From the NCBI GenBank assembly GCA_000165345.1, contig CM000434.1, forward strand, positions 832,001 through 896,000: a stretch of DNA of 64,000 bases, written 5' to 3'. Within the stretch, counting starts at the first letter, position 1. Each line of letters begins with the position of its first letter. Shown one piece after another: positions 18,527-18,600 of the stretch. Made by a program: the position numbers and the translations under genes. The notes under the pieces were generated by a model. That model was not told the DNA's origin. It saw nothing but the letters and a program-made list of their open reading frames with translations, and made no database searches.

Positions 18527-18600
18527 CCCCGGTACCTGGTTAAGTGCAGCACGTGCATGCGCATGTTTGCGCGGGGATTGGGCGGGAAAATTTGCTCTTC
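18527..18600. promoter_or_regulatory. GC-rich motif island at convergent 3-prime ends (CCGGTACC, GCACGTGCATGCGCATG, GCGCGGGG, GGCGGG)
   Basis: It is a 74-bp stretch of about 60% GC in a 30% GC region. It contains the same ACCGGT/GCATGC/ACGTG elements seen at promoters. It lies between the PDI-like stop (18372) and the stop of the 2330-aa gene (18601), where no gene start is annotated. Confidence 0.3.

Follow-up and report, generated by a model that had tools for sequence, protein, structure and literature searches.

A GC-rich island of 68 bp on chromosome 6 of Cryptosporidium parvum, located in the 228-bp gap between two convergent stop codons, is tentatively read as a cis-regulatory transcription factor module of the 3'-end antisense-promoter type described by Li et al. 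(2021) and is most likely a weakly constrained internal or antisense promoter, an element of a kind already described in C. parvum. The motifs of the island can be identified, are clustered non-randomly and are conserved at the level of the motif, and features of an RNA gene, an ORF or an intron are absent. The initial annotation had described a motif island resembling a promoter at a place where two genes converge with their 3' ends and none starts, and this description is supported by the match to modules upstream of neighbouring genes and by published C. parvum cis-elements (PMC3734150).

Position and motif content of the island

The island (18523-18590; 65.6% GC over 18523-18586, plus the AAAA tail of an E2F-like site) is flanked on the left by CPATCC_002924, a gene on the plus strand encoding a PDI-like thioredoxin-family protein of 575 aa (16645-18372, stop codon 18370-18372), and on the right by CPATCC_002925, a gene on the minus strand encoding a 2330-aa protein with signal peptide, ankyrin and multiple TM regions (18601-25593, stop codon 18601-18603), referred to below as the giant gene. 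It thus spans 11-78 nt past the stop codon of the giant gene and 151-218 nt past that of the PDI-like gene. The ends of the two ORFs at 18372 (plus strand) and 18601 (minus strand) had been correctly recognised in the initial annotation, as had a GC content of about 60%, measured here as 65.6% for 18523-18586 and 61% for 18527-18590; the 64-mer that it quoted is present on the chromosome, but at 18523-18586, about 4 nt to the left of the start originally given. In the 64-kb window, i.e. the whole stretch of DNA analysed, this 64-mer ranks first for GC content among 63,937 segments of 64 nt (z = 4.8; 66% vs. 31%) and exceeds both tRNA genes. A portion of 7.7 kb of the window is identical to CP141123.1, where the position in the record equals the position in the window plus 829,380, placing the island at approximately 847,903-847,970.

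Regarding motif content, CGGTACCTG (18530-18538, plus strand) contains the best-conserved core, CG[GA]TACC[TC]G, and has no factor assignment; nothing useful was found in the literature on ACCGGT or GGTACC as Cryptosporidium motifs. The motif scan detected a CACGTG palindrome (18550-18555), which contains the ACGTG element, and TGCATGCG (18554-18561), with GCATGC itself at 18555-18560, is an exact match to the ApiAP2_1 site of cgd2_3490, [T/C]GCATGC[A/G] (PMC3734150), and reads as YGCAUGCR in RNA from both strands (PMC8354455). The element GCGCGGGG (18569-18576, plus strand) includes the G-box G.GGGG, the site of cgd8_810, as GCGGGG at 18571-18576, overlapping an E2F-like GCGCG (PMC3734150). 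The E2F/DP1-type site TTGGGCGGGAAA (18578-18589, plus strand) agrees with the published motif 4, TTTGGCGGGAAV, at 11/12 positions, and no other sequence in the window exactly matches the form of this E2F-like motif relaxed at one position (TTK-relaxed); up to one mismatch gives six matches in 64 kb against 0.44 expected. This site was missing from the motif list of the initial annotation. The consensus of motif 4, the AP2_1 site (from protein-binding microarrays) and the G-box are all published C. parvum elements (Oberstaller et al., 2013; PMC3734150); they were defined upstream of coding genes, while the island has a gene start on neither side. The trio of ACCGGT, GCATGC and ACGTG originally ascribed to the island is present only in part, GCATGC and ACGTG (as CACGTG) being found but ACCGGT being absent; instead the island has CCCGGTACC, which has only CCGGTA in common with the promoter palindrome TACCGGTA. 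The cores GGTACC, CACGTG and GCATGC are all palindromic and would therefore suit dimeric DNA binders.

When a tri-motif module is defined as CCGGTA, GCATGC and ACGTG within 120 bp, seven clusters are detected in the 64-kb window and none in 200 shuffles, the island cluster being located at 18529-18581. The other six are in four divergent and two tandem intergenic regions, each including the upstream side of some gene, a position that the island does not share, as both neighbours face it with their 3' ends. The module of the PDI-like gene (16320-16385, with the trio at 16328-16376), which is used here as the comparator for strong constraint, consists of TGCATGCA, CACGTAA and TACCGGTA about 300 nt upstream of the ATG, and a module at the 5' side of the giant gene (26181-26283) is present 589-686 nt upstream of its ATG. 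The arrangement of CGGTACCTG followed by AGTGCA recurs on the minus strand upstream of another gene (13231-13257); extended by an E2F site, this architecture spans 13223-13257, 233-270 nt upstream of the ATG, and is conserved in C. parvum, C. hominis, C. meleagridis, C. ubiquitum, C. canis and the Logan species L005, the species whose loci cover it. GCATGC occurs in four of the seven divergent gaps of the window but in only one of the five convergent ones, which indicates that the motif is mainly promoter-associated in C. parvum, and none of the other convergent gaps contains a comparable cluster. The possibility of a repeat or mobile element was rejected, as the island occurs in one copy per locus and no second copy was found in the window.

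Conservation across Cryptosporidium species

Conservation in related species, which the initial annotation had suggested as a check, is found for the short cores, kept in seven related species down to a protein identity of 57%, but the cores are absent from C. bovis, C. ryanae and C. serpentis and there is no constraint at base level. GC-rich 7-mers of the island recur in the orthologous gaps of the chipmunk genotype (P = 0.03), C. ubiquitum (P = 0.0015), the Logan species L008 and L005 (P = 0.0005 for each) and C. canis (P = 0.056), and none recur in those of C. bovis, C. ryanae and C. serpentis; this test was used because the longest-shared-k-mer test is uninformative given the AT-rich low complexity. 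A scan of metagenomes for further orthologous loci found no relatives.

The motif CGGTACCTG is identical in C. hominis, C. ubiquitum (within CGGTACCT) and L008; its core has the variant CGGTGCC in L005, and the chipmunk genotype and C. meleagridis share the variant CGATACC. Two species with an identity of only about 65% at fourfold sites still have the exact 8- to 9-mer CGGTACCT(G). GCATGC is kept in seven of the eight species of the clade, with six overlapping copies in C. ubiquitum; C. hominis and C. canis retain CACGTG, which C. meleagridis has lost (CATGTG). The TTGGGCGGGAAA site persists in C. meleagridis, the chipmunk genotype has a weaker form of it, and L005 has GCGCGGGAAA at an equal distance from the stop codon; the site is gone from C. 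hominis (GGCGAGAAA), C. ubiquitum and L008. Both E2F-like matches are missing from C. hominis, and the entire G-rich/E2F half is missing from C. ubiquitum and L008. Among C. parvum isolates the G run is polymorphic (GGGG or GGG), and one G fewer breaks the G-box match.

The overall identity of the island to C. parvum is 0.91 in C. hominis, 0.79 in C. meleagridis, 0.69 in the chipmunk genotype and 0.60 in C. ubiquitum, which is no higher than the identity at fourfold-degenerate sites (0.957, 0.854, 0.724 and 0.647, respectively); conservation above the neutral rate is not seen (0.60 vs. 0.647 for C. ubiquitum). The island differs in this respect from the PDI promoter module at a distance of 2.2 kb, which is strongly conserved and evolves much more slowly, with identities of 0.98, 0.89, 0.88 and 0.85 in the same four species and 0.77 in C. 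canis. The species distribution of the PDI module, both in presence and in absence, is the same as that of the island, which fits one shared factor system.

Transcripts at the locus and alternative explanations

The island starts 11 nt after the stop codon of the giant gene and hexamers resembling poly(A) signals are present only beyond it, which places it inside the 3' UTR; by this geometry it is very probably transcribed as the 3' UTR of the giant gene, one of the outcomes that the initial annotation had listed as refuting it. Such a location is compatible with a role of the island at the DNA level. The hexamers, GATAAA, AATATA and TATAAA, are part of an A-rich stretch on the minus strand (18503-18523) directly downstream of the island in the orientation of the giant gene, and on the plus strand the same stretch is a T-run upstream of the island. 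The canonical A[AG]TAAA was not detected anywhere in the 228-bp gap on either strand. For the unannotated transcript suggested in the initial annotation no match was found: twelve k-mers, taken from the island and from the 3' ends of the giant gene and the PDI-like gene, are absent from the part of the lncRNA sequences of Li et al. (2021) that was compared, a comparison of limited power, and the site context of the island is not found among the entries of their upstream-motif table. Entries for CPATCC_002924 and CPATCC_002925 were likewise not found, a look-up of low reliability, as the controls for the assumed mapping of NCBI to CryptoDB identifiers, Cp_lnc_108 and Cp_lnc_109, do not lie in the window. 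Cp_lnc_17 has TTCCCGCCCAA in common with the island, with a different adjoining site.

ORFs crossing the island are 27-63 aa long, and a small protein was rejected, as the 37-aa ORF starting with ATG (18491-18604) is frame-shifted in C. hominis and affected by the G-run indel within C. parvum. No gene is called at the island in the NCBI annotations, whereas automatic calls on Logan contigs do place one there. An unrecognised terminal intron in the giant gene, as envisaged in the initial annotation, is not borne out, since the C-terminus of the giant protein (..FFKFTT*) is conserved to the stop codon in six species, with the stop at the same position as TAA, TGA or TAG; as a 5' splice site, CAG|GTACCG on the minus strand is poor, and L005 has GCACCG there.

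Regarding a function in the 3' UTR itself, GCATGC is the most persistent core, being kept in seven of eight species and multiplied in C. ubiquitum, and YGCAUGCR is present on both transcripts, as CGCAUGCA in the giant mRNA and as UGCAUGCG on the PDI strand. In the giant mRNA, in a gap without A[AG]TAAA, CGCAUGCA is followed about 30 nt on by the A-rich stretch with GATAAA, AATATA and TATAAA on the minus strand, and the island itself begins 11 nt past the stop codon. The YGCAUGCR motif of Toxoplasma gondii, the second most enriched 3' UTR motif of that organism, located where 3' boundaries are annotated and followed within 10-40 nt by an AU-rich motif (Holmes et al., 2021; PMC8354455), is alike in its place in the 3' UTR near the stop codon, in the A/U-rich sequence about 30 nt downstream and in the palindromic core on both transcripts, and a CPSF4 architecture with zinc fingers and YTH domain is reported for apicomplexans, with C. 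parvum in the domain figure (PMC8313237). The GCAUGC core and the following A/U-rich stretch could specify where polyadenylation takes place and keep transcription from running on into the convergent partner, but this RNA-level signal for 3'-end formation or termination is considered unlikely: Toxoplasma is another organism, in which the role of the motif was left unresolved by the authors as well (PMC8354455), GCATGC in the window is mostly found in promoter regions, being missing from most convergent gaps and present in four of the seven divergent ones, which are pure promoter regions, C. bovis, C. ryanae and C. serpentis do without the element, and the E2F site, the G-box, CGGTACC and the identical tri-motif composition of the upstream modules are left unexplained. 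A factor-bound element that is not a promoter, acting either as a downstream enhancer or loop anchor common to both flanking genes or as a roadblock or insulator separating converging polymerases, is somewhat less likely again; a terminator or insulator had also been suggested in the initial annotation. It is consistent with the occurrence of the same trio at the 5' side of the PDI-like gene (16328-16376), at the 5' side of the giant gene (26181-26283) and at their common 3' end, with the single phyletic distribution of the island and the PDI module, and with the lack of an lncRNA at the locus among those of Li et al. (2021) that were compared. The weak constraint at base level argues against a precise architectural role, and since no comparable cluster is found in the remaining convergent gaps, this would not be a general solution for convergent genes; nor do we know of such a mechanism described in Cryptosporidium. 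DNA-bound factors acting as roadblock terminators are established in yeast, and the likeness to the island, factor sites immediately following a gene in a compact genome, is pure analogy; we know of nothing comparable described in Apicomplexa.

The island might also have no selected function, being a GC-rich patch produced by mutation or repair (GCAT slippage, G-run slippage or biased gene conversion) or a decaying remnant with incidental motifs. Island identity at or below that of fourfold sites in every comparison, the loss of both E2F-like sites in C. hominis, the G-run indel among C. parvum isolates, the GCAT microsatellite in C. ubiquitum and the visibly unaffected synteny in the three species without the island all agree with this explanation, which is nevertheless regarded as improbable, because a neutral patch of 66% GC should decay in a genome of 30% GC, whereas species with a fourfold-site identity of only about 65% have a GC-rich patch with the same cores in the same position, two of them with the exact CGGTACCT(G), and because five distinct known motifs in 68 bp are far from chance. 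Only a slightly smaller chance is given to a dual-use element of intestinal-clade Cryptosporidium, the DNA of which would recruit E2F/ApiAP2-type factors while the GCAUGC in its RNA would be a two-strand 3'-end signal of the YGCAUGCR type, the whole forming a bidirectional terminator or insulator; such an island might pair as a loop anchor with the modules at 16.33 kb and 26.2 kb, on the 5' side of each flanking gene. Regarding structured RNA, either as a small GC-rich ncRNA gene or as a stem-loop in the 3' UTR of the giant mRNA acting on stability or translation, the GC content, which is the highest of this AT-rich window and above that of the tRNA genes, a z-score of -2.35 for a fold of 141 nt on the minus strand and a double change from C-G to U-A between C. 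parvum and C. hominis that keeps a pair of the outer stem (columns 15/73) are suggestive. The island fold, by comparison, has a z-score of only -1.2 to -1.6, and a conserved RNA fold was rejected on the basis of these weak single-sequence values and of the lack of covariation in RNAalifold on either strand, where the covariation terms for the four alignable species were -0.06 (plus strand) and +0.5 (minus strand) kcal/mol with several broken pairs; in C. ubiquitum and L008 the G-rich arm of the outer stem is missing while the left cores persist. A tRNA or a known RNA family was likewise rejected, since ARAGORN and Rfam at gathering thresholds, and Rfam with E-values up to 10 on the 400 nt of 18350-18750, gave nothing relevant; the best local Rfam match, to RUF1, has 16.5 bits (gathering score 70), and the two tRNAs of the window are ordinary ones located elsewhere. 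The Plasmodium falciparum RUF6 GC-rich ncRNA elements (mentioned in PMC7840661) are alike in being short GC-rich islands in a very AT-rich apicomplexan genome, but the island, with one copy per locus, is not a repeated family in the sequence compared and has no similarity at the level of Rfam. With no Rfam or tRNA match and covariation of about zero, the small ncRNA gene suggested in the initial annotation is thus unlikely, and structured RNA as a whole is the most remote of the explanations considered.

A proposed antisense-promoter type of module and its implications

The preferred reading, a promoter-type module, places the island beside the antisense lncRNA promoters of C. parvum. The 363 antisense lncRNAs of Li et al. 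(2021; PMC7840661) show a bias towards the 3' ends of sense genes, and the top two motifs within 100 bp upstream of these lncRNAs are E2F/DP1 and ApiAP2_1; in sporozoite ATAC-seq peaks, 96 of which are non-upstream ones, the dominant motif is E2F and the second is poly-T (PMC11761812). The island is alike in its position at the 3' end of a protein-coding gene, as in this lncRNA class, in having E2F/DP1 and ApiAP2_1 (GCATGC) motifs close together and in the T-rich motif. It differs in being at a locus without a transcript among the lncRNAs of these authors that were compared, and in its position between convergent genes, where any antisense RNA would be hard to tell from read-through of the partner. 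The similarity of CGGTACCTG to their motif 4, CCCATACCAGGTGGA, is loose (a shared ACCAGGT on the minus strand).

In the proposed mechanism the island would act as double-stranded DNA, a cis-regulatory module consisting of a tight cluster of binding sites, with E2F/DP1 as the putative binder of TTGGGCGGGAAA, ApiAP2 factors as those of TGCATGCG and the G-box GCGGGG, and additionally a factor binding ACGTG and an unassigned factor recognising CGGTACCTG. Genes for E2F/DP factors in C. parvum include cpbgf_1001560, cpbgf_6001430, cpbgf_7003650 and cpbgf_8001850. It would be the same kind of module as found upstream of the neighbouring genes, here located in the shared 3' region and the 3' UTR of the giant gene, and its most likely output would be non-coding transcription starting at the 3' end. 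The order of elements, from the T-run to CGGTACCTG, GTGCA/GCATGC and E2F, suggests, by analogy with the gene-proximal copy at 13223-13257, that initiation would be rightward on the plus strand and the RNA antisense to the end portion of the giant gene. That factors bind, that the island acts as a promoter and in which direction it would be transcribed are inferences; the reading is favoured by the matches to published motifs, their clustering, the conservation of the cores, the matching phyletic pattern, the palindromes, the architecture at 13223-13257, the precedent of the antisense lncRNAs and the motifs of the ATAC-seq peaks. Counting against a promoter are the absent transcript match, the lack of base-level constraint, the losses of E2F and G-rich sequence and the position in the 3' UTR, where conservation of GCAUGC could reflect a role at the RNA level.

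In C. parvum genes are tightly packed, and both the separation of transcription units and the start sites of antisense RNA are poorly understood. The island provides a small and clean test case, with five recognisable factor motifs in 68 bp and no gene start nearby, and natural variants are available: the E2F-like matches are missing from C. hominis, nothing but CGGTACC and the GCATGC array is present in C. ubiquitum, and the G-box varies among C. parvum isolates. If antisense transcription fires from the island into the 7-kb membrane-protein gene, it would be one more locus of a known class; if the island terminates or insulates, an apicomplexan GCATGC element would be tied to 3'-end control outside Toxoplasma; and the dual-use element, if true, would be a transcription-unit boundary assembled from the components of promoters, in a genome where genes leave hardly any space between them. 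The island and the rigidly conserved PDI promoter module present one motif vocabulary under two evolutionary regimes.

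Composition and setting of the island

The window belongs to Cryptosporidium parvum chromosome 6. The GC-rich island (68 nt, window positions 18523-18590) is situated inside the 228-bp gap separating the stop codons of two convergent genes, in agreement with the initial annotation. The PDI-like ORF (16645-18372, plus strand) encodes the C. parvum thioredoxin-family protein CPATCC_002924, which has one thioredoxin domain and 96% identity to its C. hominis homologue, and the giant ORF (18601-25593, minus strand, 2330 aa) is identical to EAK89983/QOY41251 (CPATCC_002925) and has ankyrin repeats at the N-terminal end of its product. 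The 7.7 kb around the island are identical to CP141123.1 843,025-850,752, and the NCBI annotations of several C. parvum assemblies contain no gene between the two. The 64-mer quoted in the initial annotation is present, at 18523-18586 rather than at 18527-18600, and is indeed GC-rich, with 65.6% GC vs 31% for the window. The island is the most GC-rich 40-, 64- or 80-nt stretch in the 64 kb (z = 4.8, rank 1 of 63,937 for 64-nt windows), above both tRNA genes; tRNA-Gln(TTG) (163-235, minus strand) and tRNA-Pro(CGG) (35223-35294, minus strand) are the second and third most GC-rich stretches.

The promoter-like elements that had been proposed were found in part: GCATGC and ACGTG (as CACGTG) are present, whereas ACCGGT is missing, the island carrying instead CCCGGTACC, which has only CCGGTA in common with the promoter palindrome TACCGGTA. 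Reading along the plus strand, a T-run (18513-18518) is followed by CGGTACCTG (18530-18538), then GTGCA, CACGTG (18550-18555), TGCATGCG (18554-18561), GCGCGGGG (18569-18576) and TTGGGCGGGAAA (18578-18589). The last of these, missed in the initial annotation, matches E2F-like motif 4, TTTGGCGGGAAV (Oberstaller et al., 2013; PMC3734150), exactly once one position is relaxed, and is the only sequence in the window to do so; a G-box match, GCGGGG, had also been overlooked. The same study describes AP2_1 as BGCATGCAH, the microarray-derived site of cgd2_3490 as [T/C]GCATGC[A/G], and the G-box, bound by cgd8_810, as G.GGGG; all three motifs, E2F-like motif 4 in its relaxed form, AP2_1 and the G-box, are matched by the island. 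Motif 4 among those upstream of lncRNAs, CCCATACCAGGTGGA (Li et al., 2021, table S3), has ACCAGGT in common with the island minus strand, TTAACCAGGTACCGG, and may be the same CAGGTACC-type element.

The canonical Cryptosporidium poly(A) signal A(A/G)TAAA (PMC11761812) was not detected on either strand of the gap. On the strand of the giant gene the island starts 11 nt past the stop codon, and the first PAS-like hexamers, GATAAA, AATATA and TATAAA (18523-18503), come only right after it; we therefore infer that the island must belong to the 3' UTR of the giant gene. On the PDI strand, the stretch ahead of the island offers only AATAAC (18417) and CATAAA (18447). The suggestion that the giant gene has an unrecognised terminal intron was not upheld, as the protein ends in ..FFKFTT* or close variants in six species, which have the stop codon in the same place, as TAA, TGA or TAG.

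Related modules in the window

The palindrome TACCGGTA occurs eight times in the window vs 0.13 expected (3586, 7735, 7803, 16369, 26253, 39879, 50669 and 55961), with seven of the eight occurrences intergenic. Table 1 of Oberstaller et al. (2013), which has 25 upstream motifs, does not include it, and searching the literature returned nothing on it for Cryptosporidium. TGCATGCR has 21 strand-matches in the window vs 1.47 expected. The tri-motif module (CCGGTA, GCATGC and ACGTG within 120 bp) forms seven clusters in the 64 kb vs none in 200 dinucleotide-preserving shuffles. Besides the island (18529), these are located at 16328-16376, 26181-26283, 36464-36559, 47311-47383, 50669-50738 and 60804-60884, four in divergent and two in tandem gaps, so that the island alone has 3' ends on both sides. 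The nearest ATG is 175-1100 nt from the modules, two of which lie only 60-215 nt past the stop codon of the preceding gene. Two of these modules, at 16.33 and 26.2 kb, are in the upstream regions of the genes flanking the island, the PDI-like gene and the giant gene respectively.

A composite of an E2F site followed 3-25 nt on by GGTA[CT]CG was found at 16018-16050 and 13223-13257 and is kept across species, at orthologous positions in loci L001-L007 and L010; the form GCACACA..TTGGCGCC..GGTATCG is present even in C. ryanae and C. bovis, and the form AAAGGCGGGAAGATGCAC..CAGGTACCGAA in six species. The arrangement CGGTACCTG..AGTGCA..E2F, which precedes the ATG of the gene left of 13 kb by 233-270 nt, is conserved in all six species with covering loci. 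Palindromic E2F-type arrays, TTGGCGCGCGCGCCAA and GGGCGCGCCC (57942-57957 and 6380-6389), were also seen in upstream regions, and GGTACCCGGTACC is located about 255 nt upstream of a multi-intron gene (44163-45110, plus strand), which lies in the 1.5-kb gap after the 2272-aa gene and is absent from the plain ORF list. Also absent from that list is the probable first exon (51438-51674, plus strand; 78 aa, ATG at 51438) of the gene at 51783-52787.

Conservation among Cryptosporidium species

The orthologous gap was taken from ten species via PDI homologues, and the gene order ankyrin gene, PDI, giant gene is kept in all ten as far as the contigs reach. A GC-rich patch just past the giant gene's stop is present in C. 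hominis, C. meleagridis, the chipmunk genotype, C. ubiquitum, C. canis and the Logan species L008 and L005, while the island is absent from C. serpentis and from C. bovis and C. ryanae, whose gaps are AT-rich and 120-140 bp long. The C. parvum gap shares GC-rich 7-mers significantly with those of C. ubiquitum (P = 0.0015), L008 (P = 0.0005), L005 (P = 0.0005) and the chipmunk genotype (P = 0.03), marginally with that of C. canis (P = 0.056), and not at all with those of C. bovis, C. ryanae and C. serpentis.

Regarding individual elements, C. ubiquitum has an exact CGGTACCT and L008 has CGGTACCTG as the CG[GA]TACC[TC]G core, and TGCATGC is retained in seven of the eight species of the clade. 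C. ubiquitum has a GCAT microsatellite at the island position (L002 5908-5933) with six overlapping GCATGC; the chipmunk genotype and L008 have two GCATGC sites each. The E2F-like part is retained in C. meleagridis, weaker in the chipmunk genotype, represented by GCCGCGCGCGCC in C. canis and by GCGCGGGAAA, at equal distance from the stop, plus TTTCCCGCGCC in L005, and lost in C. ubiquitum, L008 and C. hominis (GGCGAGAAA; also GCGCGGGG to CCGCGGGG). C. hominis (L007 5884-5945, against window 18523-18600) has changes relative to C. parvum at 6 of the 68 island positions but at only 2 of 150 elsewhere in the gap. When C. meleagridis serves as the outgroup, four changes in the right half prove to be derived in C. 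hominis, among them the ones that remove both E2F-like matches. Within C. parvum the sole variant in the gap is GGGG vs GGG in the G-box (18573-18576; L012, L013, L015, L017 and L021), one of only about seven variable sites in 7.7 kb among isolates and assemblies, which could be a real polymorphism or a homopolymer assembly error.

Whole-island conservation is no higher than that of neutral sites: identity to C. parvum in C. hominis, C. meleagridis, the chipmunk genotype and C. ubiquitum is 0.91, 0.79, 0.69 and 0.60 for the island vs 0.957, 0.854, 0.724 and 0.647 at fourfold-degenerate sites of the two flanking genes. The 66-nt tri-motif module upstream of PDI (16320-16385, TGCAAGTTGCATGCAATTAC.TGCATTACACGTAATTG...AATACCGGTAT; L007 3676-3741, L002 3673-3738, L003 3707-3772) is clearly constrained, with near base-for-base conservation from C. 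parvum to C. canis (0.98, 0.89, 0.88 and 0.85 in the same species and 0.77 in C. canis, a range of 0.77-0.98 vs 0.65-0.96 at fourfold sites). A few short cores and the richness in GC are thus retained while the remaining sequence changes, a pattern that a loose grouping of factor sites would give and that does not fit a precisely structured element. The PDI module is found from C. parvum through to C. canis, is incomplete in L005 and is missing from C. bovis, C. ryanae and C. serpentis, a phyletic distribution shared with the island, which suggests that one factor system may have been gained or re-tuned in that clade.

Possible roles of the island

The statement held most firmly is that the island is probably a cluster of candidate transcription-factor sites with the motif vocabulary of the neighbouring upstream modules; its output is less certain. 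The favoured reading, held tentatively, is an antisense or non-coding promoter, given what such motif pairs are documented to do at 3' ends in C. parvum, palindromic cores that suit DNA binders, a phyletic pattern tracking that of a genuine promoter module, and an order of T-run, CGGTACCTG, GTGCA, GCATGC and E2F that mirrors the arrangement near 13 kb. By analogy, we infer a rightward, plus-strand direction for any such transcription, which would be antisense to the last exon sequence of the giant gene. The known class that the island most resembles is that of 3'-end antisense lncRNA promoters: 363 of 396 C. parvum lncRNAs are antisense, with a bias towards the sense gene's 3' end, and E2F/DP1 and ApiAP2_1 are the two leading motifs in the 100 bp upstream (Li et al., 2021; PMC7840661). 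Sporozoite ATAC-seq gave 984 peaks, 888 of them upstream of genes, with E2F as the dominant and poly-T as the second motif (PMC11761812). The searched part of the published lncRNA sequences contained none of twelve k-mers taken from the island and the ends of both genes. The island's site context is likewise missing from every row of the upstream-motif table; Cp_lnc_17 has TTCCCGCCCAA in common with the island, but next to a different adjacent site. The published pipeline discards candidates resembling read-through of an upstream same-strand gene (Li et al., 2021), and thus has lower power at a 228-bp convergent gap.

Alternatively, the island could be a 3'-end signal, a reading made attractive by its 3' UTR position and the persistence of GCATGC across species. 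In Toxoplasma mRNAs, the 3' UTR motif YGCAUGCR clusters at 3' boundaries, and an AU-rich motif follows 10-40 nt further on, the authors leaving the role of YGCAUGCR open (Holmes et al., 2021; PMC8354455), and TGCATGCG reads YGCAUGCR on both strands. This is nevertheless unlikely, since it leaves the other island motifs unexplained and GCATGC occurs in four of seven divergent but just one of five convergent gaps of the window. A factor-bound boundary, enhancer or loop anchor ranks below it in probability, and absence of any function lower again. A structured RNA is highly improbable: single-sequence folding is unremarkable (z = -1.4 on the plus and -1.2 on the minus strand; -2.35 for the 141-nt minus-strand context), and RNAalifold on C. 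parvum, C. hominis, C. meleagridis and the chipmunk genotype gave a covariation term of -0.06 (plus) and +0.5 (minus) with several broken pairs. A double change, C-G to U-A, that distinguishes C. parvum from C. hominis preserves an outer-stem pair, a lone event in a structure built from these very sequences, but the G-rich arm required by that stem is missing in C. ubiquitum and L008. No tRNA or Rfam family matched the island even at permissive thresholds. A small protein was likewise rejected. Of the short ORFs that cross the island, the one of 37 aa beginning with ATG (18491-18604) has a frameshift in C. hominis, and C. parvum itself is polymorphic for the G-run indel.

Earlier publications already describe the motifs and their co-occurrence, as well as promoter-like elements at 3' ends in C. 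parvum, and the island is a new instance of them. What makes it instructive is its convergent position, the existence of natural variants that have lost sites (C. hominis, C. ubiquitum and C. parvum isolates), and the contrast with the rigid promoter module nearby. The recurrent TACCGGTA palindrome and the conserved E2F/GGTA[CT]CG composite may be worth a genome-wide survey.
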